64,000 nt of DNA. Origin: Candidatus Gastranaerophilales bacterium. GTDB lineage: Bacteria; Cyanobacteriota; Vampirovibrionia; Gastranaerophilales; Gastranaerophilaceae. The translations under genes were made by a program, and so were the position numbers. The notes under the pieces were generated by a model, which worked only from the letters and a program-made list of their open reading frames with translations, searched no databases and was not told where the DNA came from. Positions within the stretch are counted from its first letter, which is position 1; the number at the start of each line of letters is the position of its first letter. Below are positions 3,563-62,392 of the stretch, one piece after another. Where the stretch lies: positions 1,113-65,112 of the forward strand of contig CALUWA010000006.1 in assembly GCA_944324365.1 (NCBI GenBank), given 5' to 3'.

Positions 3563-4720
3563 TTATTTCCAAGGATAGTCGTCTTTGAATGTCCAGCCGT
3601 CACCGGTGAATATTAGGAAACATAATGTAGGAAAGCCTCCGCCATAACTGGACTCTTTGCACATCTCTATAATATCATTTCTTGAAGATATATACATTCT
3701 TGGTAATCTCGGAATCTCAAATTTGCGATTTCCGGTGTTAAATACTGTGGCAATGTCAAAGACGTCACGGCCTACAATATTTGGGGCTTTTTGGCAATTA
3801 ACATCGGTTGTAAATGTTGCAAATTGGTTATTAGACCATAAAGTGATACAAGAGCCGTCTGCCAGTCTAAAGAATGCTCCTCTGGTAATTGAGCCGTCAT
3901 GAAAATATGCATCTTGCCCGTTAAAATTATATGCATGGTATGTATCTGTAAATTTATGAGCTCTGGCTCCGGATGTTCTCAGATACGGCATATAATATTT
4001 TTCTACAAATTCTGTTTGTGTAATTTTGGCCGGTATAGATTCGCCTGTATCCGGATCTGATGATGATATAGGCATATCCCAATATTCCATATCTCCGAAA
4101 TCTTTTACTGCCATTAAATGTGCGTTATATAAAAGAGAATATGTTCTTTTAAGTTGAGTAGCGGTAACAATTTTCTGGTACTTTGCTATAAGCATTGGCA
4201 TTGTCATAGCAGCGACAATACCGATAATGCCAAGGGTAATAAGAACTTCCGCAAGTGTGAAGGCTGCTTTTTCTTTTAGATCGCGGACAGGCTTACGCCT
4301 TCCGCGATGACATGCGGCAGGCAAGATGTACCATAGTTTGTCATCGCGTACTTCGTTGTGCGATCTTTTCTTCTGGATTGCTTCGCTAACTATCGGATTA
4401 TTCGGGTTGTCGCCGGAGTGACGTCCGGCTCCAACTTGCGGGCTGGGGCACTTCGTGCCACGGCACCCTTCCGAAAATCCGACCTCGCAATGACGCCTAA
4501 TGTCATCCTGAACTTGTTTCAGGATCTTACTACCATCGCAATGTGACAATTTGCTTTGGATACTCTTTTCCCGGATTGCTTCACTTCGTTCGCAATGACG
4601 TATGGTGTCATCCTTACAAAGCGAACCGCTGGTTACATTGTCATCCTGAGCGATAGCGAAGGATCTCTTATTTAATGAGATTCTTCGGGCTAAAGCCCTC
4701 AGAATGACAAAAGGCGTCAT
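3563..4720 (-). CDS. type IV pilin-like protein A (prepilin-type N-terminal methylation motif) with repeat-built extended leader
   Basis: KAA|FTLAEVLITLGIIGIVAAMTMP motif (F codon 4261-4259) followed by a 232-aa mature domain ending GDGWTFKDDYPWK; paralog of C. The N-terminal ~153 aa of the track ORF is a translation of palindromic repeats. The frame stays open upstream as far as the G tract at 4819-4830. True initiation is uncertain. Confidence 0.75.
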   Translation of the reverse strand: MTPFVILRALARRISLNKRSFAIAQDDNVTSGSLCKDDTIRHCERSEAIREKSIQSKLSHCDGSKILKQVQDDIRRHCEVGFSEGCRGTKCPSPQVGAGRHSGDNPNNPIVSEAIQKKRSHNEVRDDKLWYILPAACHRGRRKPVRDLKEKAAFTLAEVLITLGIIGIVAAMTMPMLIAKYQKIVTATQLKRTYSLLYNAHLMAVKDFGDMEYWDMPISSSDPDTGESIPAKITQTEFVEKYYMPYLRTSGARAHKFTDTYHAYNFNGQDAYFHDGSITRGAFFRLADGSCITLWSNNQFATFTTDVNCQKAPNIVGRDVFDIATVFNTGNRKFEIPRLPRMYISSRNDIIEMCKESSYGGGFPTLCFLIFTGDGWTFKDDYPWK

Positions 4721-4760
4721 TGCGAAACGCGAAGCGTTGAAGCAATCCAGAAAATTGCAA
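4270..4760. repeat. cluster of GC-rich GTCAT...ATGAC palindromic repeat modules inside the leader region of pilin-like A
   Basis: Modules seen: ATCGCGGA-N13-TCCGCGAT (4280-4308); GTCATCCTGAAC-TTG-TTTCAGGATC (4502-4526); GGATTGCTTC...GCAATGAC (~4573-4599); a 69-nt hairpin GTCATCCTGAGCG...CCCTCAGAATGAC (4640-4708); GTCATTGCGAAACGCGAAGCGTTGAAGCAATCC (~4716-4748). Homologous modules occur at 55562-55632 and 61012-61640. Confidence 0.85.
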
Positions 4761-4818
4761 TACCGGGTTTTAAAAGTGTCTAAAAGGCTGAAACTATCTC
4801 CAAAAGCGGAGAGTCTAG

Positions 4819-10297: not shown

Positions 10298-11278
10298 TTG
10301 GTGTTTATGCTGATTTTAATTTTATTGATTGCGGTCGTAATTTATGTATTTAAGGGTATAATCATTGTTCAGCAGCAGCAGGAAGTGATTATTGAGCGTA
10401 TGGGACGTTATGAAAGAACACTTACTGCAGGGCTGAATTTCATTTTTCCTATTTTGGAAGCACCGCGTGGTATTTTGACAAAGGTTAGCCAAAGAGGTTT
10501 TGACGGGCAGACATATTATTTGTTAAAACAGGCAGATAGGATTGATAAACGTGAGCAGATGTATGATTTTCCTCGTCAGAATGTAATTACGGAAGATAAC
10601 GTTTCGATTACTATTAATGCGTTAATTTATTTCCAAATTATTGACTCAAAAAGTGCGGTATATGAGATCGCGAATTTGCCGGAAGCTATTGAAAAGCTTA
10701 CCCAGACAAATTTAAGAAACCTTGTAGGTCAAATGGATTTGCAAAAAACATTGACTTCCCGTAATACGATTAATACGGAACTTCGCACAATTCTTGATGA
10801 AGCAACAAACAAATGGGGTGTAAAAGTTAACCGTGTAGAAATTCAAGATATTTTCCCTCCTGCTGATATCCAAGCTTCAATGGATAAATTGATGAAAGCA
10901 GACAGAGAAAAAACCGCAACAATTACGGAAGCTGAAGGTTTGAAAGAAGCCGCAATAAGAAAAGCAGAAGGTGAAAAAGAAGCTGCTATTCGTTCTGCAG
11001 AAGGCGAAAAGCAGGCAGAAATTCTGCGAGCCGAAGGTGTTGCTCAAGCTCGTATTATTGAAGCCGAAGCGGAAAAAGAAGCTATTAATAAAATTATTGA
11101 GGCTTTTGCGGATAAAGGACAGCCTGATAAATACCTGATTGCAATGAAATATCTCGAAACTCTTGGTGATATCTCAAAAGGCCAGAATAACAAAGTTGTT
11201 TATATGCCTTACGAAGCGTCAGGAATTCTGGCTTCAGTTGATGGTATCAAGCAAATGTTTGATAAACCGGCAAAATAA
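10298..11278 (+). CDS. SPFH/band-7 (stomatin-like) protein
   Basis: N-terminal TM segment, SPFH core (IIVQQQQEVIIERMGRY...DNVSITINALIYFQI...) and a C-terminal AEGEKEAAIR coiled-coil repeat region. The start could instead be ATG 10307. Confidence 0.88.
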   Translation: MVFMLILILLIAVVIYVFKGIIIVQQQQEVIIERMGRYERTLTAGLNFIFPILEAPRGILTKVSQRGFDGQTYYLLKQADRIDKREQMYDFPRQNVITEDNVSITINALIYFQIIDSKSAVYEIANLPEAIEKLTQTNLRNLVGQMDLQKTLTSRNTINTELRTILDEATNKWGVKVNRVEIQDIFPPADIQASMDKLMKADREKTATITEAEGLKEAAIRKAEGEKEAAIRSAEGEKQAEILRAEGVAQARIIEAEAEKEAINKIIEAFADKGQPDKYLIAMKYLETLGDISKGQNNKVVYMPYEASGILASVDGIKQMFDKPAK

Positions 11279-11353: not shown

Positions 11354-12172
11354 CTAATGATTGCAGGTTCCATTATACTCCCAAGCTCCATAACCAGATG
11401 AGACCCACCATCCCCCGGCATTGACACAGGACTCATAATCCGTACAAAACTGCGGGGTTTCAGCAGAGCATTCCTGAACATCCGCGAGTTCCTCAGAAAT
11501 ATCGTAAAGCTGTCCTCCTTCGCCTGCGAACCTGAATTTAAGAAGGTCTTTGGTCGCAATGTTAGGGTTATTTTTTCCGTTAACATCGACAACAACATCG
11601 AAGGACGAGAAGGTATCATCTGGAATAACGCCGAAAATCATGCCGTCACCTGTTGTGAACATATAGAGCACATCATCCCAATTAAACGGCGACGGAGAGG
11701 CTTTGCCTTCGACGGCGTACGAGTCCGGGAGTCTTTCAGGCTGGAGCCCGTTAACAGAGTCGTTGATAACATTAAATGCATCTTTGTGTTCCTTAGAAAC
11801 GCAGTCTTTGTCTTCCATTTCGTTACACTTAGCCAAGAAAGGAAGATTAGCAACGTTAAAGATTTCGTAGTGCGCCATCATTAATTTATATCCGTTAGCG
11901 ACAATATTTTTGGCTTTTTTAGCCTGAGCCTCGAGAATAAGCTCCTGGACTTTGGTTTGGAGCATAGGCATGGTAAGTGCAGCGACAACACCAATAACGC
12001 CGAGAGTAATCAAAACTTCGGCTAAAGTGAATGCAGTCACATTGTTACGAGGAGCGGCCCCGAAGATATCTTCATACGCAATGTTATCGGATACAGGGTG
12101 AAAACGCTTGCCTAGCTTATGATTAAGTCCCCCCCCCCCCCCGGAGAAATCAGCTATAATTGAGTTTTTCAT
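11354..12172 (-). CDS. type IV pilin-like protein B, G-tract in frame (ON)
   Basis: SD AAAGGAGGA then ATG 12172. Leader is MKNSIIADFS-GGGGG-LNHKLGKRFHPVSDNIAYEDIFGAAPRNNVTA (47 aa), followed by |FTLAEVLITLGVIGVVAALTMP (F codon 12031-12029). Mature domain contains VDVNGKNNPNIATKDLL, related to the DxN(C/G)xxxPNxxG(R/K)D motif of A, C and E. Confidence 0.8.
   Translation of the reverse strand: MKNSIIADFSGGGGGLNHKLGKRFHPVSDNIAYEDIFGAAPRNNVTAFTLAEVLITLGVIGVVAALTMPMLQTKVQELILEAQAKKAKNIVANGYKLMMAHYEIFNVANLPFLAKCNEMEDKDCVSKEHKDAFNVINDSVNGLQPERLPDSYAVEGKASPSPFNWDDVLYMFTTGDGMIFGVIPDDTFSSFDVVVDVNGKNNPNIATKDLLKFRFAGEGGQLYDISEELADVQECSAETPQFCTDYESCVNAGGWWVSSGYGAWEYNGTCNH
12129..12142 (-). repeat. homopolymeric G14 tract inside the leader codons of pilin-like B
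   Basis: 14 consecutive C on the plus strand, translated as GGGGG. The length keeps the upstream ATG in frame with the pilin domain. Confidence 0.95.
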
Positions 12173-12835: not shown

Positions 12836-13525
12836 ACAGAGGATAACGTATCTATCACAATTAATGCTTTAATATATTTTCAGATAATTGATTCAAAAAG
12901 TGCGGTTTATGAGATTGCTAATTTGCCGGAAGCCATTGAAAAACTTACACAGACAAACTTAAGAAACCTTGTTGGTCAGATGGATTTGCAAAAGACACTG
13001 ACTTCACGTAACACAATTAATACGGAACTTCGTACAATCCTTGATGAAGCTACAAACAAATGGGGCGTAAAAGTCAACCGTGTAGAAATTCAAGATATTT
13101 TCCCTCCTGCTGATATCCAAGCTTCAATGGATAAATTGATGAAAGCAGACAGAGAAAAAACCGCAACAATTACGGAAGCTGAAGGTTTGAAAGAAGCCGC
13201 AATAAGAAAAGCAGAAGGTGAAAAAGAAGCTGCTATTCGTTCTGCAGAAGGCGAAAAGCAGGCTGAAATCTTAAGAGCGGAAGGTGTAGCGCAAGCTCGT
13301 ATTATCGAAGCTGAGGCAGAAAAAGAAGCTATTAACAGAATAATTGAAGCTTTCGCTGATAAAGGCCAGCCGGACAAATATTTGATTGCAATGAAATACC
13401 TTGAAACACTTGGTGATATTTCAAAGGGTCAAAATAACAAAGTTGTTTATATGCCGTATGAAGCATCCGGAATTTTGGCATCTGTCGACGGTATTAAGCA
13501 GATGTTTGATAAACCTGCAAAGTAG
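12836..13525 (+). pseudogene. 5'-truncated duplicate of the SPFH gene (last 229 codons)
   Basis: Collinear with 10589-11278 (offset 2247). The encoded peptide is identical except K->R. It lacks the N-terminal ~97 codons, TM segment, SD and ATG. Upstream it joins out of frame to a 26-codon ORF starting ATG 12792. Confidence 0.75.
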
Positions 13526-18173: not shown

Positions 18174-21100
18174 ATGTCTAAAAAATTATCGAAGATGAGT
18201 ATCGCAGCTTTAGTTATTGCTTTTTCTGTAGCTACAAGTGCCAGAGCTGGTGATATTACTGGAATTACCGGAGTTGGTGGTGTGTTTGATATTAGTCCTT
18301 CAAGGATTAATGGAGAAGCTGGTCTTAGAGAATATACAAATTTTAGATTAGATCAAGGTGAGGTTGCAAACCTGATTTTTAAATACGGCAATCAAGATAT
18401 TTCAAAATTCGTAAACCTTGTCGATAATCAAATTAATATTAACGGTTTGGTCAACACTGTAAGAAACGGACAATTTTATCCTGGCGAAGCAATATTTGTA
18501 TCTCCAAATGGTATGGTTGTAGGTGAATCAGGTGTTTTGAATGTTGGTTCATTATCTGTTTTGACTCCGACTGCACCGGGTATGAAAATGTTTAAAGATG
18601 GTAAAGCTACATTAGAAGAACTTGGTTACCATGGTAATTCGAATATAACAGTTAACGGTATGGTTCTTGCCCGTAATAATATAGGAATGGTCGCAAGAGA
18701 TTTGACCGTAGGGCCTAATGCTGCTTTAGTTGCCGGCATGGGTACAGGCTATAATACTTTGGTAAATAATTCCCAGCAAGCTTCCGATTTATTTAATCAG
18801 CTTGTAAATACTGGTAAAAATTCAAGCAGTGCAAATATTGAGTTAAGAACATATAACAGAGACGGCGCAGGTACTAACGGTATGAATATCCAAGGCGATG
18901 TTATAAATCATGGTACCGGCGATATTGTTATGATAAACCGCGGCGCAGGATTTAATACATCAGGCGGTCATATAACAGCTCATGGCGGTGATGTTTATCT
19001 TACTAATGGCAATGGAGCAATGAATGTTAACAGTACAGTTTCTGCGGATAGCATTTATATTGCTGGTGGTTCTAATGCCGGTGGTATAAATATTGATTCG
19101 GATTTGTCCGGAAAAGATTTAGTTCAAATTGTTCATAATGGTTCAGGTAATACCTCTGTGGATGGTGATATTTCAGGACAAGGTAACGTTTATATAACAG
19201 AACGTAGTGGAAATTTGGCTATTAACGGTGATATTACAAATGCTAATGGTAATGTTGTTATTGCAAGTAACGGTACAGGTTTGACTATCGGAGATAGTTC
19301 AGTTATTTCAAATAATAATAAAATTCAAATTGCAAATACCGGTAGAAATGGTATTACATTAGATGGCCAGGTTAAAAATTCAGGTAGTACCGCAATTACA
19401 AACCGTTCCGGTAATTTCAACATAAACGGTTCTGTGGAAAACACATCCGGAAAAATGAATATTACAAATACAGGTAATAAACTTACTTTAGGCACTTCTT
19501 CGTCAATTGTCGGCGGCGGAGATGAGTTATTAATCCAAAATACAGGTGCCGGCGGTTTTGAGGCTAACGGTACAATTCAAAATACAGCATCAACCTTCCT
19601 TCAAAATACCAATGGTGCGATGAATGTTAACGGCACAATTACAAATTCCGGCGACGTTCTTTATATAGCAAATACCAGAAACGGTTCAGGTTTAACTATT
19701 GGACAGAATGCCAATATATCAAATGATAATTCTCTCCAAATCCTGAATACAGGTGCTAACGGTATGACAATCGGCGGTACAATTTATAATGACCATAATT
19801 ATGAAAGAGGTACCGCGATTACAAATCGTGCCGGTAATATGGTTGTTAATGCCAAAATAACAAGCAAAGATGGTAATATAAATCTTACCAATGTCGGTAA
19901 TGGCGGTCTGACAATTGGTAACAGTGCAGAAATCGGTTCTGGTAACGGTGAATTGACTGTTCAAAATACTGGTAACGGCGGTTTGACTGTAAACGGTACT
20001 GTTAATAATAAAGGTACTGCATTTGTATACAATAAGACCGGCGATATGAACGTTAATGGTAAGATTGTTAATTCCCAGGGCGGTCTTTACATTACAAATG
20101 ATGGTAATGCAATGAATCTTAATGAAGGTTCTGCAGTCAGAGTAGCCGGCCAAGGTGCAAAACTTAATATTCTTAACCGAGGCGATGGCGGTATGAAGAT
20201 TAGCGGCAATGTTGCAGATACCGGTAAAACTCTTATTACAAACGTAAAAGGTGATTTCGATATTGATGGTGTTATCAGCAACAAATCAGGTCAGTTAAAT
20301 ATTACCAATAACGGTAATAAGTTGACCATAGCAGAAGGTGCCAGCATATCAAACGATACAAACAGAATTTATATAACAAATAAAGGTGCCGGTGGTATGG
20401 ATGTAAACGGCCAGGTTGTTGGTCAGGGGCATATACTTCTTACTAACAGAAATGGCGGCATGAAAGTATCTTCAAATGTTACATCCGGTAAGGCAAATGT
20501 TGTATTAACAAATACCGGGAATGAAGATATGGTTGTCAATGGTACAGTTACCGGACAAAAGGTTACAGCAACAAGTAAAGGCAATGATATGATTCTTGGC
20601 AACACTGAAACTGATCAGGTTGCGATAAACGGTACTCAAAAAGTTGCAATTACTGTTGAAAACGGCAGCCTGAAAAATGCCGGCAGCGAAGCTGATTTAA
20701 TTAAATCTAATGGAAATTTGTTTGTAAATGTTACAAACGGTACAATTGGCGAAGAATCCGCAACCAAAGATTTGACAAAATCAGTAAATGTTAACATTGG
20801 CGGTAGAATTAAAGCCTTTACAAATAACCGTGATGGTTCAAACAATGACTACAGCATAAATATGGCAAGCCAAAATGCCGATATGAATGTTGACAGAATC
20901 AAAGCTGACGGTACATTAAGATTGGATACAACCGGCTCAATCTTAAATGCATCAACTGATCTTGCAAACTATGCAAACGTTAAAGGTACAACACTTCAAT
21001 TATATGCTGATCAATACATCGGTACCGCAGATAATGCATTGCATTTCCGTCAAACAGATGCGTCTCAGAAATCAAATGTGGTTGCAGGCAGAGATGTTAA

Positions 21101-21311
21101 CCTTCACCATCGTGGCGAAGCTGTTGGTGAAAATGTTAACTTTGATACTATCGGCTCTAAAACCGGTAATGTCACTGCAGATATCATCAAAGACGGTGTA
21201 ATTGATAATGTAATTGCTCCGGGATCTATTAATGTTACATCCCGTAGACAGGATGCTAATCTTGAGATTAAAAATCAATCAAATGATACATCATTAATCA
21301 AAGATTACTAA
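18174..21311 (+). CDS. filamentous-haemagglutinin-type (TPS domain) beta-helical exoprotein
   Basis: Signal peptide, then a TPS/haemagglutination-activity region (FVNLVDNQININGLV...AIFVSPNGMVVGESGVLNVGSL). About 800 aa of periodic N/G/T-rich repeats follow (NGxI.N..G...I.N.G.GLTIG). No TpsB gene in the window. Confidence 0.8.
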   Translation: MSKKLSKMSIAALVIAFSVATSARAGDITGITGVGGVFDISPSRINGEAGLREYTNFRLDQGEVANLIFKYGNQDISKFVNLVDNQININGLVNTVRNGQFYPGEAIFVSPNGMVVGESGVLNVGSLSVLTPTAPGMKMFKDGKATLEELGYHGNSNITVNGMVLARNNIGMVARDLTVGPNAALVAGMGTGYNTLVNNSQQASDLFNQLVNTGKNSSSANIELRTYNRDGAGTNGMNIQGDVINHGTGDIVMINRGAGFNTSGGHITAHGGDVYLTNGNGAMNVNSTVSADSIYIAGGSNAGGINIDSDLSGKDLVQIVHNGSGNTSVDGDISGQGNVYITERSGNLAINGDITNANGNVVIASNGTGLTIGDSSVISNNNKIQIANTGRNGITLDGQVKNSGSTAITNRSGNFNINGSVENTSGKMNITNTGNKLTLGTSSSIVGGGDELLIQNTGAGGFEANGTIQNTASTFLQNTNGAMNVNGTITNSGDVLYIANTRNGSGLTIGQNANISNDNSLQILNTGANGMTIGGTIYNDHNYERGTAITNRAGNMVVNAKITSKDGNINLTNVGNGGLTIGNSAEIGSGNGELTVQNTGNGGLTVNGTVNNKGTAFVYNKTGDMNVNGKIVNSQGGLYITNDGNAMNLNEGSAVRVAGQGAKLNILNRGDGGMKISGNVADTGKTLITNVKGDFDIDGVISNKSGQLNITNNGNKLTIAEGASISNDTNRIYITNKGAGGMDVNGQVVGQGHILLTNRNGGMKVSSNVTSGKANVVLTNTGNEDMVVNGTVTGQKVTATSKGNDMILGNTETDQVAINGTQKVAITVENGSLKNAGSEADLIKSNGNLFVNVTNGTIGEESATKDLTKSVNVNIGGRIKAFTNNRDGSNNDYSINMASQNADMNVDRIKADGTLRLDTTGSILNASTDLANYANVKGTTLQLYADQYIGTADNALHFRQTDASQKSNVVAGRDVNLHHRGEAVGENVNFDTIGSKTGNVTADIIKDGVIDNVIAPGSINVTSRRQDANLEIKNQSNDTSLIKDY

Positions 21312-34500: not shown

Positions 34501-35658
34501 TTAATCAATATTGAATAAATCTTCCTGCTTTTTAAAATTTACTTTTCTTGTTCTTACTTTATCGTTTTTCTTTTTTGTTTTAGCAGATACGTTTTTGTAT
34601 GCATTATCTACGGAAATTTTTGTTAAAGGCTTTTTATTTCTTCTGTCGTAGAAGGTCAGCCAGAATCTTCTGTTAATATTGTCTACTGCAAATGAAATAT
34701 CCCCCACAACTTTTTCGCCCGGTTTTATTTGTTTAAACATTAACTTTGTGTCGCCAAAAATTGAAGGTCTGAATACTGCGTTGTAATCATTTACCAAAGC
34801 TGAATCCAGCCCTGAAAAAGTTTTATCGGACATGTTTGAAATCATTACGGTTAATGTTATTGTATTTGCTTCTCCAAACGGATCCTCTTCGTGTTTTACG
34901 TTTGTAATGGTTATATCAAGCCCCGGATATTTCATTTCATGCTGCATAAGGGCACTGTCTTTGTAAACAGGAAGCGGAACAGATGTGTTGATTTTTACTT
35001 TAATTTCGTCACCAGGAGCGATTAAAACCTCGTGTCCTTTTCTGATTAATGCGGCACCAAGACCTATAGCGCCGCCCAATGCGGCACCGCCCGCAAGAGT
35101 ATAACCTTGAGAGGCGATAGCGGCTTCAAGTCCAAGCCAGTTAAGTGCCAATAATCCTCCAACCGCGCCGCCTGCAAGAGTGTATCCCACATCCTGTGCA
35201 ATAATTTTTGATGTTTCAGCGACAGGGTGAAGTTTTGTAGTCATTTTTCCTTCTATCGGGATTTCTCTTCCGTCAGGTGTTATCAAATAATCAAAATCTA
35301 ACGTTAAACTGGCAGCTCTTCCGAGACGTTTTGCTTCTGTTGTATTGGAAATTCTTCCGTGCGCAAATGTTCCTTTCGGAATTATTACCCCGCTGTCGCC
35401 TTCGACATCGTTTACAACTTCTGCAAAAAACTCATCCCCTTCAATGTTTATATTTGAATCCAAAACTTGTGACACTGTCATATGGATTACGTCGGAACGT
35501 TCCATGTATTCAACTTGCCCCGTAAAAAGTTCGCTCTCAAGTTCTTTTCTTAATTGCTCGCTTTTTTCTGCGTGGCCTTCCAATACCGGCGCCGCGTATG
35601 CCATGGTATTTGTGCCTAAAAATGTTATTAACAAAAATAGTGCAAAAATCCTTTTCAT
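34501..35658 (-). CDS. secreted protein with VirB10/TrbI-like signature and glycine-zipper (paralog 3)
   Basis: Signal peptide. Core GVIIPKGTFAHGRISNTTEAKRLGRAASLTLDFDYLITPDGREIPIEG, then GYTLAGGAVGGLLAL...GYTLAGGAALGGAIGLGAAL. Confidence 0.55.
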   Translation of the reverse strand: MKRIFALFLLITFLGTNTMAYAAPVLEGHAEKSEQLRKELESELFTGQVEYMERSDVIHMTVSQVLDSNINIEGDEFFAEVVNDVEGDSGVIIPKGTFAHGRISNTTEAKRLGRAASLTLDFDYLITPDGREIPIEGKMTTKLHPVAETSKIIAQDVGYTLAGGAVGGLLALNWLGLEAAIASQGYTLAGGAALGGAIGLGAALIRKGHEVLIAPGDEIKVKINTSVPLPVYKDSALMQHEMKYPGLDITITNVKHEEDPFGEANTITLTVMISNMSDKTFSGLDSALVNDYNAVFRPSIFGDTKLMFKQIKPGEKVVGDISFAVDNINRRFWLTFYDRRNKKPLTKISVDNAYKNVSAKTKKKNDKVRTRKVNFKKQEDLFNID

Positions 35659-52148: not shown

Positions 52149-52371
52149 TATAAGATATTTCTCCCTGTCAGATAATCTTTATTTTACTACCTTTATAATA
52201 CTTCAAAACGGAGAAAAAAGCTATAAATTTGTAACAAAATTTTAATAAAAGGTAATAAAGAAAAGAGAGTATGGAACTCAAGCCATTAACTTACGTTTGT
52301 TGTAATACAAGAGTGCCGGAGTAATGCTTTCTTTTTTGCCTTCTTTTTTCTTTGAGCTAAAGAAAAAAGAA

Positions 52372-52516
52372 TGGTGGCCCCGGCGCGATTGTCTTGGTCG
52401 CTCGCGTGTAACGGCATTCCGTATTTTGCTAATGTGTTTTCAACACAATCGCAAAATAGCTCCAGCCTCAGCTCGCTCCCGCTCGACCGCAATAGGCGTT
52501 CTCATCGCTGCCGGGG
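52372..52516 (-). ncRNA. candidate structured small RNA, copy A (hypothetical)
   Basis: Extended -10 TGTTACAAT (52533-52525). 5' CCCCGGCAGCGAU pairs with 3' AUCGCGCCGGGG (12 bp, one bulge), followed by CCACCA and a T-rich tail. Internal 8-bp UAUUUUGC/GCAAAAUA stem encloses a GUGUU-GAA-AACAC hairpin. No family recognised. Confidence 0.3.
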
Positions 52517-52578
52517 TTATGTTTATTGTAACACAAAGCTTCCTTAGGAATTTTTTCCTTCAAATGTAAAAAAAAGAA

Positions 52579-52723
52579 TGGCGGCCCCGGCGCGATTGTC
52601 TTGGTCGCTCGCGTGTAACGGCATTCCGTATTTTGCTAATGTGTTTTCAACACAATCGCAAAATAGCTCCAGCCTCAGCTCGCTCCCGCTCGACCGCAAT
52701 AGGCGTTCTCATCGCTGCCGGGG
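52579..52723 (-). ncRNA. candidate structured small RNA, copy B (hypothetical)
   Basis: Same as copy A shifted by 207 nt. The 3' end reads CCGCCA. Confidence 0.3.
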
Positions 52724-52785
52724 TTATGTTTATTGTAACACAAAGCTTCCTTAGGAATTTTTTCCTTCAAATGTAAAAAAAAGAA

Positions 52786-52862
52786 TGGTGGCCCCGGCGC
52801 GATTCGAACGCGCGATCTTCGGTTTAGGAAACCGCTGCTCTATCCTGCTGAGCTACGAAGCC
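52786..52862 (-). tRNA. tRNA-Arg (anticodon CCT), CCA encoded
   Basis: Hand-folded cloverleaf: acceptor GGCUUCG/CGGGGCC, D arm GCUC/GAGC, anticodon loop UUCCUAA, T arm GCGCG-UUCGAAU-CGCGC, discriminator A plus CCA. Confidence 0.85.
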
Positions 52863-52868
52863 GTAAAA

Positions 52869-52942
52869 TATGCTTGACGGGAGTCAAACCCGTGACCTTC
52901 GGCTTCGGAGACCGACGCTCTATTCAACTGAGCTACAAGCAC
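52869..52942 (-). tRNA. tRNA-Arg (anticodon CCG), no encoded CCA
   Basis: Hand-folded cloverleaf: acceptor GUGCUUG/CAAGCAU (G1-U72), anticodon stem UCGGU/GCCGA, loop CUCCGAA, T arm ACGGG-UUUGACU-CCCGU. The unusual U56 is matched by a D loop (AGUUGAAUA) lacking the GG pair. Confidence 0.7.
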
Positions 52943-53005
52943 AAATTATAAAATAATTGTACTATAACCCGGTTTATTTTTCAATCATAATTTGCAATAA
53001 TCAGA

Positions 53006-54874: not shown

Positions 54875-55702
54875 TTACTTCCACGGATAATCGTCTTTGA
54901 TTTGCCAGCCATCGTAAACTATTATCGCAAAACAAGCTGCTTGTTTGCCTCCATTGTATGTGTGTGTTTTGCAGCCGGAGTTGTTCATTATTTGTTCTCT
55001 AGGAAATGATTTAAACGCATCAAGTCCTGCAATAAATGGTTTTTTGTTGTTCATGTAATATAATTCAAAAATATCAAAAATATCCCTGCCGTATATATTT
55101 GGGCCTTTTTCACAATTTAAATCTGTCGTTAATACAACATACTGATTATTAGACCACAGTGTAAGACAAGAGCCATCGGACATTCTGAAGGAGCTGCCTC
55201 TGCCATGAACATTATCGTATTGAATATCTTGTCCGTTAAAATTGTATGCTTTGTATAATCCGGATTTCTTTTTCTGATGCTGCAGGTACGGCAGATAATA
55301 TCTTTCAAGAAATTCATCATTAGTTATACTTCTTTGGTTATTTTCATCAGTAATCGGGTAGTCCCAGTATATTGAATCCCCGTAATCATTAACCGCCATC
55401 TGGTAAGCATTAGAAAGGAGTGAATAAGTTCTTTTAAGCTGGGTAACAGTCACGAGTTTTTGGTACTTTGCAATTAACTGCGGCAAAGTCATTGCCGCGA
55501 TAATTCCGATTATGCCGAGGGTAATAAGGACTTCCGCTAACGTGAATGCTGCTTTCTTTTTGTCATCCTGAGGATGAAATCCGAAGGATCTCTTGCTTAA
55601 TGAGATTCTTCGGGCTTTGCCCTCAGAATGACGATTGGTGTTCTTCTTACAAAGGAAGCCGCCAATAATCCAAGAAGCATTGTAATGTCGTACCTCAGGC
55701 AC
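54875..55702 (-). CDS. type IV pilin-like protein C, upstream start out of frame (OFF as assembled)
   Basis: KKKAA|FTLAEVLITLGIIGIIAAMTLP (F codon 55546-55544). The mature domain is a paralog of A and ends YDGWQIKDDYPWK. The track start is a GTG without an SD. The frame is open upstream to the G12 tract. Confidence 0.78.
   Translation of the reverse strand: MPEVRHYNASWIIGGFLCKKNTNRHSEGKARRISLSKRSFGFHPQDDKKKAAFTLAEVLITLGIIGIIAAMTLPQLIAKYQKLVTVTQLKRTYSLLSNAYQMAVNDYGDSIYWDYPITDENNQRSITNDEFLERYYLPYLQHQKKKSGLYKAYNFNGQDIQYDNVHGRGSSFRMSDGSCLTLWSNNQYVVLTTDLNCEKGPNIYGRDIFDIFELYYMNNKKPFIAGLDAFKSFPREQIMNNSGCKTHTYNGGKQAACFAIIVYDGWQIKDDYPWK
55562..55632. repeat. 71-nt GTCATCCTGAGG...CCTCAGAATGAC palindromic module inside the leader of pilin-like C
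   Basis: Imperfect long hairpin. Same module as 4640-4708 and 61044-61111. Translated in the pilin frame as HSEGKARRISLSKRSFGFHPQDD. Confidence 0.85.
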
Positions 55703-55788
55703 TCGGGCTTCGCCATCAGAATGACGACATAGCGCGGACTTTAACCTGTCTAAAAGGCTGGAACTTTCTCCAAAAGCGGAGAGCCTAG

Positions 55789-55800
55789 CCCCCCCCCCCC
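55789..55800 (-). repeat. homopolymeric G12 tract after the upstream ATG of pilin-like C
   Basis: 12 consecutive C on the plus strand, starting 14 codons after ATG 55841-55839 (SD GGAGG 55855-55851). The assembled phase terminates at TAG 55787-55785. Confidence 0.95.
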
Positions 55801-55877
55801 TGGAGAATACCGGTATAATCAGTGTTTTCAGATTTCAACATTTCGTATATCCTCCATAATTTCAAGCTTCTGTTAGT

Positions 55878-55906
55878 ATTATAACGTATTTTTTGATATA
55901 TTTCAA
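55878..55906 (-). promoter_or_regulatory. sigma70-type promoter of pilin-like locus C
   Basis: Minus strand TTGAAA (55906-55901), 17-nt spacer, TATAAT (55883-55878). Confidence 0.65.
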
Positions 55907-61295: not shown

Positions 61296-61348
61296 AATAG
61301 AAAAGGAGGATATAGATATGCAAAAGTCAAGTATAGCGCGGAAACACC

Positions 61349-61358
61349 GGGAGGGGGG
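61349..61358 (+). repeat. interrupted G tract (G3-A-G6) after the upstream ATG of pilin-like D
   Basis: Located 10 codons after ATG 61318. The assembled frame stops at TAA 61369-61371. Confidence 0.9.
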
Positions 61359-61603
61359 TATCTGCATCTAAGTCAGGGCAAGGGTTTGTGCCCGTTTGCC
61401 ATTGCGGCGAGCCTGAGGCTCTACACTATGACGCTGCGCTTCGTGGAATGCTACAATTAATCCAAGAGAAGAGATCGCGGACAAACCTTTGGTTTTCCGC
61501 GATGACATGTGGCTGGCGGAAGGTTCCAAAACCTGTCATCACGCACTTGTTGCGCGATCTATGAATTGCTTCGTCGCAAGCTCCTCGCAATGACGAGAAA
61601 TAT

Positions 61604-62392
61604 TTGCTTAGCAACCCTTTACTGAAAATCCGACCTTGCAATGACAGGAAAAAGAGTTTCTTCGGATTTCATCCTCAGAATGACATAGCAAAGAAAGCGG
61701 CGTTTACGCTTGCGGAGGTGCTGATTACGCTTGGTATAATCGGTGTAATCGCAGCATTGACATTACCCGGACTGCTTGCAGAGTATTCAAAGGTTGTGGT
61801 TGAAACAAAATTAAAAAAATTCTATTCCCAGATAAATCAGGCAGTACAGTTATCAGAAGCAGAGTATGGGGATAGAGCATACTGGCATCTTGGCGTAAAT
61901 ACTCTGGAATTTGATGAGAATGGAAAACCTATTCCGGGTACATCTTCTGTTGAGCAATGGTTTATGAAGTATATAGCTTCTCATATGACAGTAATTAAAG
62001 TTGATTATGATGATAATGCCAGACCAACGTTTTATTTTAAAGATGGTACGGCCTTAAAGCAAATGAATGGTTCTATCCAATCTTCTCATGAGGATTGGAA
62101 TCAGGATTGGATGTTTTATACTTCAAATCCGGAAAAATGTGAAAAGTTATATGGTTCTGAATATAAAGCACGAGGTCGATGCAGTTTTGCATTTATGTAT
62201 TTGACTGTTAGCGATGATCCTGCCTATAAAAATTTGGTAGGTAAAGGATTTGAGCCTTATAAGTATCGTTGGGATGGAACTGTTCGCTATTTTAAGGAAA
62301 GATGTAAAACTCAGCCTGAATACTGCACAGCCTGGATTCATTTGAACGGGTGGAAAATTCCTGATGATTATCCGTTTAAGGTTTCTTATTAA
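61604..62392 (+). CDS. type IV pilin-like protein D (possibly silent or decayed expression site)
   Basis: AKKAA|FTLAEVLITLGIIGVIAALTLP. C-terminus NGWKIPDDYPFKVSY is related to A and C. The track start is a TTG without an SD. The pilin frame is open back to the G tract except for one TGA at 61562-61564. Confidence 0.7.
   Translation: MLSNPLLKIRPCNDRKKSFFGFHPQNDIAKKAAFTLAEVLITLGIIGVIAALTLPGLLAEYSKVVVETKLKKFYSQINQAVQLSEAEYGDRAYWHLGVNTLEFDENGKPIPGTSSVEQWFMKYIASHMTVIKVDYDDNARPTFYFKDGTALKQMNGSIQSSHEDWNQDWMFYTSNPEKCEKLYGSEYKARGRCSFAFMYLTVSDDPAYKNLVGKGFEPYKYRWDGTVRYFKERCKTQPEYCTAWIHLNGWKIPDDYPFKVSY

Follow-up and report, generated by a model that had tools for sequence, protein, structure and literature searches.

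How can a pilin-like gene be expressed when a run of twelve G and a stop codon lie between it and the only ATG preceded by a Shine-Dalgarno (SD) sequence? The question is raised by a locus, here called locus C, in a stretch of 64,000 nt (the window) of contig CALUWA010000006.1, from a metagenome-assembled genome (MAG) of the Gastranaerophilaceae (Melainabacteria). All coordinates are window positions, and locus C is read on the minus strand. Judging from sequence, we consider it probable, at about 0.78, that locus C is a contingency locus, i.e. a hypermutable on/off gene in which slipped-strand phase variation acts on translation. Properties of such loci found here are a homopolymer in the 5' part of the coding sequence, length polymorphism between conserved flanks, one length class that gives the full-length product, and an enrichment of the tracts in one gene family.

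The G run and the pilin-like gene of locus C

A promoter-like site, TTGAAA (55906-55901), 17 nt and TATAAT (55883-55878), matches the sigma-70 consensus at 11 out of 12 positions. It is the best site of the region and is conserved in the orthologues L001, L002 and L109 and in the paralogue at locus A. The SD sequence GGAGG (55855-55851) is located 9 nt ahead of the start ATG (55841-55839) and does not vary across a five-locus alignment. Fourteen codons, MLKSENTDYTGILQ, lead from the ATG to the G12 homopolymer (55800-55789), the proposed switch. As assembled, the frame continues through GGGG to TAG 55787-55785 and gives the mini-open reading frame (mini-ORF) MLKSENTDYTGILQGGGG (55841-55785), 18 aa plus the stop. 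The promoter, SD, ATG, tract and stop codon listed in the initial annotation were all recovered on the sequence, and its description of the gene as currently OFF holds at the DNA level.

The tract is followed by a spacer of 242 nt (55547-55788) that is open in the pilin frame only and encodes the rest of the leader when the gene is ON, for example the peptide LSAFGESSSLLDR. The mature protein (54875-55546) has 223 aa plus the stop codon (54877-54875) and starts with FTLAEVLITLGIIG after the predicted cleavage site KKKAA/F, where the slash marks cleavage. With G11 the distance from the ATG to the Phe codon at 55546 is 294 nt, i.e. a stop-free leader of 98 aa, and the reading across the cleavage site is ...ILQGGGARLSAFGESSSLLDRLKSALCRHSDGEARVPEVRHYNASWIIGGFLCKKNTNRHSEGKARRISLSKRSFGFHPQDDKKKAA/FTLAEVLITLGIIG... 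With G14, ATG 55841 is likewise joined to the pilin frame.

The spacer consists largely of imperfect palindromes, with an RNA fold z-score of -3.45. A partial repeat unit, GTCATTCTGATGGCGAAGCCCGAGTGCCTGAGGTACGAC (55687-55725), carries GTG 55702, the start called by ORF finders. This codon is in the pilin frame and has no SD, in line with the initial annotation, where it was described as a bare GTG; its repeat unit is missing from the alleles L109-L115. A second unit of 71 nt, GTCATTCTGAGGG...CCTCAGGATGAC (55562-55632), is translated as RHSEGKARRISLSKRSFGFHPQDD and has an ATG (55566-55564) at its 3' end. The earlier statement that no ATG lies closer to the FTLAEV motif is therefore right for the pilin frame and wrong for the sequence as a whole, as this ATG (caggATGac) is out of frame and opens a nine-codon ORF, MTKRKQHSR followed by a stop.

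We also considered ATG 55566, in caggATGacaaaaag, as the true start of a canonical leader MTKKKAA/F. It was rejected, for the window allele only, being out of frame, nine codons from a stop, without an SD and within a hairpin. The corresponding ATG is in frame in some other alleles.

In the mechanism that we propose, transcription would start from the TTGAAA/TATAAT promoter, and ribosomes would begin at ATG 55841, the sole SD-linked one, and enter the G run fourteen codons on. Slipped-strand mispairing in replication would alter the length of the run, at a rate befitting a hypermutable gene. At G12 (or G10, G13) the ribosomes would run into a stop a few nucleotides on, and no pilin-like protein would be made, since its gene has no start of its own. 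At G11 (or G8, G14) the ribosomes would read through the 98-aa leader, partly encoded by palindromic repeats, into KKKAA/FTLAEV, and prepilin peptidase would remove the entire cytoplasmic leader to give the 223-aa pilin-like subunit. We infer that switching is reversible within one clone. The product would be exposed at the surface, with host immunity or phage as the putative selective agent. Some expression from G12 through slippage of RNA polymerase or of the ribosome may also occur. The module (SD and ATG, 8-10 codons, a G/C run of about 10 nt, open spacer) appears ahead of about half of the family paralogues in Gastranaerophilales, so that each cell would show a small, changing subset of them.

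The mature protein of locus C matches PF07963 with 26.5 bits (cutoff 21.2) and TIGR02532 with 19.9 bits (cutoff 16.3), i.e. a class III cleavage/methylation motif with its hydrophobic stretch scores above both profile cutoffs. Among 4830 homologues the few named ones are called 'type II secretion system protein' and are assigned to Candidatus Gastranaerophilaceae. Family scans of species genomes and metagenomes yield almost exclusively gut or rumen MAGs of Gastranaerophilales/Melainabacteria. PF20318 (DUF6613) matches the product of locus D with 58.9 bits (cutoff 24.3), and those of loci A, B and C have no match at E <= 0.01 (PF20318.3); the homologue P0001 (99% identical) and most others bear a precomputed match to PF20318.4.

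According to the AlphaFold model (AF2; predicted local distance difference test score, pLDDT, 86; predicted TM-score, pTM, 0.81), the mature protein is formed by a helix at residues 3-55 (53 residues) and a beta-sheet head. When the PDB was searched by structure, nothing matched the head domain significantly; the best hit, and the only pilin, was PAK pilin (1oqw), a weak one (E = 0.3, TM 0.31/0.45), and the head is therefore without a close solved relative. The family genes are single and scattered among housekeeping genes (adhE, serine dehydratase, fur, RNase Y, SMC). Pilus machinery was not found among the 10 large ORFs of the window that were scanned; a genome of the Gastranaerophilales is reported to have pilB, pilC, pilD (the prepilin peptidase) and pilT (PMC5877343).

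Tract length and reading frame in related loci

The initial annotation had proposed a comparison of tract lengths in related genomes, and this comparison reveals more than one length at each locus compared. Among 11 DNA-checked alleles of the syntenic locus C, nine have G12 (the window, L001, L002, L109, L110 and L112-L115), L111 has G10 and L007 has G11. L007 differs from L001 by a single G over 6.19 kb, and the mature ORF is intact in every allele. At the sister locus adjoining adhE we found G10 four times, G12 twice and G13 once, and at locus B either G14 (ON) or G13 (OFF; L116-L119). A relative with a short leader (MQKSIVERVSGGGQLSFKQG/F) has G11 in ten contigs and G10 in four, from unrelated studies; in its 90% cluster the ON forms are seen in about 9 contigs and the OFF forms in about 40. 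In-phase DNA alleles are present at every locus examined. No match was obtained when JGI metagenomes were scanned for exact copies of the sequence 5' of the tract, and a look-up of P0005, the product of locus A, gave no contig.

The predicted fusion of ATG 55841 to the pilin ORF through a 98-aa leader is borne out by the G11 allele L007 and by full-length proteins predicted in other samples (P0128, P0129, P0143), which start with MLKSENTDYTGILQGGGARLSAFGESSSLLDRLKSALCRHSEGEARVPEARHYN and run into /FTLAEV. In the 90%-identity clusters concerned, these ON members and, for the sister locus, P0173 start with MLKSENTDYTGILQGGGARLSAFG... and run into /FTLAEV; other members are called from varied internal codons or from a Met inside the mature part.

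The spacers of the locus C alleles are 149, 242, 446 or 452 nt long. All these lengths equal 2 modulo 3, and all are stop-free in the pilin frame only; gains and losses of palindromic units between strains are multiples of three and introduce no stops. The alleles with the 149-nt spacer (the L109-L115 group without the GTG unit) contain none of the codons ATG, GTG and TTG in the pilin frame ahead of the Phe codon, and gene callers therefore begin at an internal Met.

To examine the whole family (L022-L101 and L120-L199) we used two independent sets, 80 genes in species genomes and 69 genes on metagenome contigs. A tract was defined as a G or C run of at least 7 nt within 600 nt upstream of a family gene. 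About 50% of the genes bear one, 40 out of 80 in the species genomes (27 G and 13 C) and 35 out of 69 on the metagenome contigs (30 G and 5 C). The lengths span 8-12 nt, with exactly 10 nt in 31 and 23 cases, respectively. In the species genomes the SD-linked ATG is mostly located 8-10 codons ahead of the tract.

The pilin frame is open from the tract to the Phe codon in 36/40 and 34/35 loci (70/75 in total). Each of the other two frames is open in 1 locus of the species genomes; in the metagenomes they are open in 4 and 3 loci, which makes 5 and 4 of the 75. For spacers of at least 90 nt the pilin frame is open in 22/26 and 14/15 cases and either other frame in none, in both sets. Both OFF frames meet a stop at a median of 17-19 nt past the tract, and most loci would be ON at 8, 11 or 14 nt. 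No alternative in-frame start exists in 20/35 and 14/33 loci (34/68), and one with an SD was found in 3 and 5 (8/68). In 340 kb, 43 out of 47 G/C runs of at least 8 nt are located at most 600 nt upstream of a family gene.

Poly-C tracts (C8-C10), which encode PPP in the leader, account for 13 of the 40 tract loci in the species genomes and 5 of the 35 on the metagenome contigs. Examples are L037, L052, L054, L060, L067, L073, L080-L082, L085, L087 and L098, in which the tract precedes the Phe codon by about 10-260 nt.

At 37% GC, the window itself contains just four G/C runs of at least 7 nt. Three of these (4830-4819, G7-T-G4; 12142-12129, G14; 55800-55789, G12) are upstream of pilin-like ORFs, and the fourth is a G7 within an ordinary ORF of the MotA/ExbB family. 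The initial annotation had stated that the design of locus C recurs at three other loci of the window. The design does recur; the states, however, differ.

Locus B (12181 to 11354, minus strand) has its SD at 12181-12177, ATG 12172, G14 at 12142-12129, a 47-aa leader and the Phe codon at 12031. At G14 it is in frame, i.e. in the ON state.

Locus A (4885 to 3563, minus strand) has its SD at 4885-4881, ATG 4871, and a mini-ORF that ends at TAG 4817-4815. Its tract, G7TG4 (4830-4819), is an interrupted 12-mer and the locus is OFF; the pilin frame is still open over 201 codons. The spacer of 557 nt (4262-4818) is packed with repeat units and is followed by the Phe codon at 4261 and the stop at 3563. 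The corresponding ON form is known from another sample (P0173). Loci A and C share a block of 167 nt (promoter, SD, mini-ORF, tract and following sequence) with 86% identity, while the coding sequences of their head domains are 59% identical.

Locus D (61305-62392, plus strand) has its SD at 61305, ATG 61318, an interrupted tract GGGAGGGGGG (61349-61358) and the Phe codon at 61703. Its pilin frame is broken by a stop at 61562, and it is probably a decaying copy. Other genomes (L025, L053, L077) contain counterparts in which the flanks are the same and the G10 is intact.

Alternative explanations and points against a switch

Several observations weigh against the proposed phase variation. The differences in tract length come from comparisons between samples. 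Only 1 out of 11 DNA-checked alleles of locus C is ON, and the ON state is found in only 8 out of 68 family loci (binomial test against 1/3, p = 4e-5). Tracts of exactly 10 nt make up 54 of the 75, mostly one nucleotide below the ON length. This is unlike a neutral switch and needs selection for OFF, a mutational bias or another route of expression; both the OFF excess and the length peak could result from such selection or from a bias towards contraction. The counts of tract length are themselves biased by allele look-ups that used the exact protein product, and the ON/OFF proportions are only indicative.

The pair L001 and L007 needs care as well. The two contigs (6190 and 6189 nt) come from assemblies with different names, ONAT22-1_SAMEA6814564 and BRZ_KK; their ends are the same, coverage is about 3x, and they may be one low-coverage sample assembled twice. 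In that case its reads may hold both lengths, or the difference may be read noise, and the pair alone is therefore weak evidence.

The leader is also unusual. At locus C it has 98 aa instead of being short and basic, and looks canonical only at its last residues (KKKAA), with Ala and not the canonical Gly at position -1. Characterised prepilin leaders have about 5-30 aa and we know of none near 98 aa, let alone the 183 aa reached in relatives of locus C. There are relatives with leaders of 20-22 aa and Gly at -1, and many family members have plain short leaders, e.g. MRKA/F or MTNRKKKAA/F.

The main rival explanation is recoding, in which G12 and G10 alleles would give low constitutive expression through slippage of RNA polymerase or of the ribosome, the length differences in the DNA being secondary. 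It would account for the depletion of ON alleles, the length peak at 10 and the fact that most loci are in one phase, needing +1 nt, and a homopolymer of G fits the slippery pattern X XXY YYZ perfectly. However, both out-of-phase classes occur, with locus C and the short-leader cluster needing -1 nt and most others +1 nt, all loci examined have in-phase DNA alleles, and RNA structure 3' of the tract is missing in the +1 class. Transcriptional slippage is best documented for runs of A or T. We consider recoding improbable as the sole explanation; it is compatible with a DNA switch and could act on top of it.

Programmed -1 ribosomal frameshifting was considered separately. The slippery run is trivial in a homopolymer, and in the +1 class the RNA 3' of the tract is without structure (median z = 0.04, none out of 41 with z < -2). 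Since this structure is missing and both phases occur, classical -1 frameshifting is unsupported.

A decaying or silent gene, i.e. locus C as a pseudogene fixed OFF with the upstream ATG and the tract as relics, is less probable still. It would fit the G12 found in 9 out of 11 alleles, and the same window contains the decayed locus D, with its interrupted tract and in-frame stop, and the interrupted tract of locus A. Against it, the frame is kept without stops over four spacer lengths, and each of the other frames is open in only 4-5 of 75 family loci, none of them with a spacer of at least 90 nt. Further, the mature ORF is intact in all alleles and ON alleles exist, and the promoter, SD and mini-ORF are 80-86% conserved between paralogues whose head domains are only 59% identical.

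Translation from a start downstream of the tract, either GTG 55702 or a codon near the cleavage site, with the tract mini-ORF as an unrelated upstream ORF, is very unlikely. ORF finders do call GTG 55702, and some alleles have an in-frame MTN(R/K)KKKAA/F. L040, L051 and L072 even have their own GGAGG and ATG with a short leader behind an uncoupled tract ORF. But GTG 55702 is without an SD and lies in a unit missing from L109-L115, which have zero in-frame starts, ATG 55566 is out of frame and ends after nine codons, and 34 out of 68 family loci have no alternative start. A downstream start also leaves unexplained why the sequence between the tract and the pilin is open in the pilin frame alone. 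From the sequences, the alleles without any start codon already largely refute this explanation.

In L040 (G11, 164 nt upstream), L072 (G11, 166 nt) and L051 (G10, 329 nt, two copies) stops part the tract mini-ORF from the pilin, and the short leaders behind it read MKKRNA/F and MKKKNA/F. These loci either retain remnants of the switch or are organised in another way.

A sequencing or assembly artefact at a long homopolymer can be dismissed almost entirely, for while Illumina indel errors increase at long G runs and L001/L007 have low coverage and are possibly one sample, more than 10 assemblies, produced in several studies, have the same tract at the identical position, the calls at the short-leader locus are reproducible (10/10 G11 and 4/4 G10), and the tracts are nearly restricted to the pilin-like family (43/47).

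Palindromic leaders, known systems and the rest of the window

The repeat units of the leaders were traced by their termini, GTCATTCTGAGG, CCTCAGGATGAC and CGCGATGAC. In the window all 29 matches (29/29) are inside the leader zones of loci A (4262-4818), C (55547-55788) and D (61372-61702). In 552 kb of other loci 25 out of 34 matches are in leader zones, which represent 18% of that sequence. The units are multicopy and located in an open, apparently translated frame, and not in intergenic sequence as is characteristic of repetitive extragenic palindromic (REP) elements or miniature inverted-repeat transposable elements (MITEs). When the whole window was scanned with Rfam, two tRNAs were the only matches, and locus C had no known RNA motif.

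Many leaders hold a duplicated partial N-terminus of the pilin, AFTLAEGATHVA...RRAA/FTLAEVLITLG, around a small palindrome (GTGCGACGCACGTCGCAC). Examples are P0041, P0055, P0062, P0065, P0067, P0093 and P0097, and the loci L026, L035, L036 and L048. The duplication looks like an insertion with a target-site duplication inside the start of the pilin.

If prepilin peptidase removes the whole cytoplasmic leader, elements would be able to enter the stretch from the switch to the cleavage site as in-frame insertions. We tentatively suggest that the prepilin leader may be a 'safe harbour' for palindromic elements, which would have given the longest prepilin leaders known (47-183 aa). In OFF cells the untranslated, structured stretch might tighten the switch by polarity or RNA decay, and the lineage would run a mostly-OFF lottery of dozens of pilin-like surface proteins. 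Two questions are raised by these leaders: what is the maximal leader length of a prepilin peptidase substrate, and can repeats colonise coding sequence that is later removed?

We found no published description of this switch in searches of the literature on phase variation, homopolymers, pilins and pseudopilins in Melainabacteria or Gastranaerophilales, and on DUF6613. The closest precedents are pilC and opa of Neisseria and the poly-G genes of Campylobacter. PMC5953494 lists pilC as phase-variable through a genic poly-G tract of G9-20 (Jonsson et al. 1991, cited there). As in our family, the G run lies near the start of the coding region of a protein related to type IV pili and the frame determines ON or OFF, with lengths of 9-20 varying between strains. 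In contrast, PilC is a Sec-exported tip adhesin/assembly factor with one or two copies and no class III signal, while here the tract is in the prepilin leader of a family with many copies per genome, up to 180 aa of leader come after it, and it is found in an uncultured non-photosynthetic relative of the Cyanobacteria.

Campylobacter jejuni and Helicobacter have poly-G contingency genes (work of Bayliss, Moxon and colleagues), with G/C runs of 8-12 nt that are rare in a low-GC genome and concentrated in genes for surface structures. Rare tracts, a modal length of about 9-10 and many independent loci that give combinatorial phase states are common to both systems. However, their targets are mainly diverse glycosyltransferases, capsule and lipooligosaccharide genes and flagellar modification genes, whereas here they belong to one paralogous pilin-like family (probably DUF6613) with a shared, conserved 5' switch module. 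The OFF excess and the peak at exactly 10 nt are also more extreme here.

In the vlp genes of Mycoplasma hyorhinis the switch is a poly-A tract, and in the opa genes of Neisseria it is CTCTT in the region of the signal peptide. Both are paralogous families with a repeat switch of its own for each copy, within the leader-coding sequence in opa, and with a conserved 5' part and a divergent body (here 86% and 59%). They differ from our loci in the type of repeat (a homopolymer here, a pentamer or a promoter tract there) and in the export signal (class III prepilin here, Sec or lipoprotein there), and the long repeat-built leader has no counterpart in them. PMC5953494 lists the opa repeat as CTTCT, 7-21.

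The likeness to type IV pilins includes basic residues before the cleavage site, Phe at +1, Glu at +5, a hydrophobic alpha1N helix and, in the predicted model, a possible lollipop shape. Leaders of type IVb pilins have about 15-30 aa. The family differs by leaders of 47-183 aa in the ON alleles, by Ala often at -1, by a head with no significant PDB match and by single genes among housekeeping genes. The palindromes resemble REP elements and MITEs in being imperfect, about 40-70 nt long, present in many copies, able to form strong hairpins and gained or lost between strains. Unlike these, the units are in an apparently translated frame, change by stop-free multiples of three and are concentrated in pilin leaders.

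Compared with these precedents, what appears to be new is the lineage, a tract inside a class III leader, one module in about half of a very large family, and the palindromic in-frame leaders of 47-183 aa. Homopolymer phase variation, textbook knowledge for a handful of pathogens, would here organise a large family of surface proteins in common gut commensals, the Gastranaerophilales, an uncultured sister group of the Cyanobacteria whose biology is almost unstudied. It suggests strong pressure, from immunity or from phages, on pilus-like structures of these bacteria. For annotation, the consequence is that gene callers give the genes of this family dozens of differing false starts or cut them to an internal Met. 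The tracts are also ready markers for strain-level population dynamics in metagenomes.

Some further features of the window were recorded. A direct repeat of 300 nt (90% identity; 10589-10888 and 12836-13135) brackets fur and the pilin locus B. Going by the annotation of the orthologous locus L004, it falls in two Band_7/SPFH paralogues.

At 52344-52943 (minus strand) there are three tandem units of 207 nt, each ending in the 3' part of tRNA-Arg(CCT). The complete tRNA-Arg(CCT) is found only in the last unit (52786-52862) and is followed by tRNA-Arg(CCG) (52868-52943). Repeated integration at the tRNA may have left these units behind.

Finally, Pfam gave no match at E <= 1e-5 for two large ORFs, 18174-21311 (plus strand, 1045 aa) and 34501-35658 (minus strand, 385 aa). 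The 1045-aa ORF holds a repeated motif of 36 nt (19005-20549), with spacings of 600, 363 and 546 nt.

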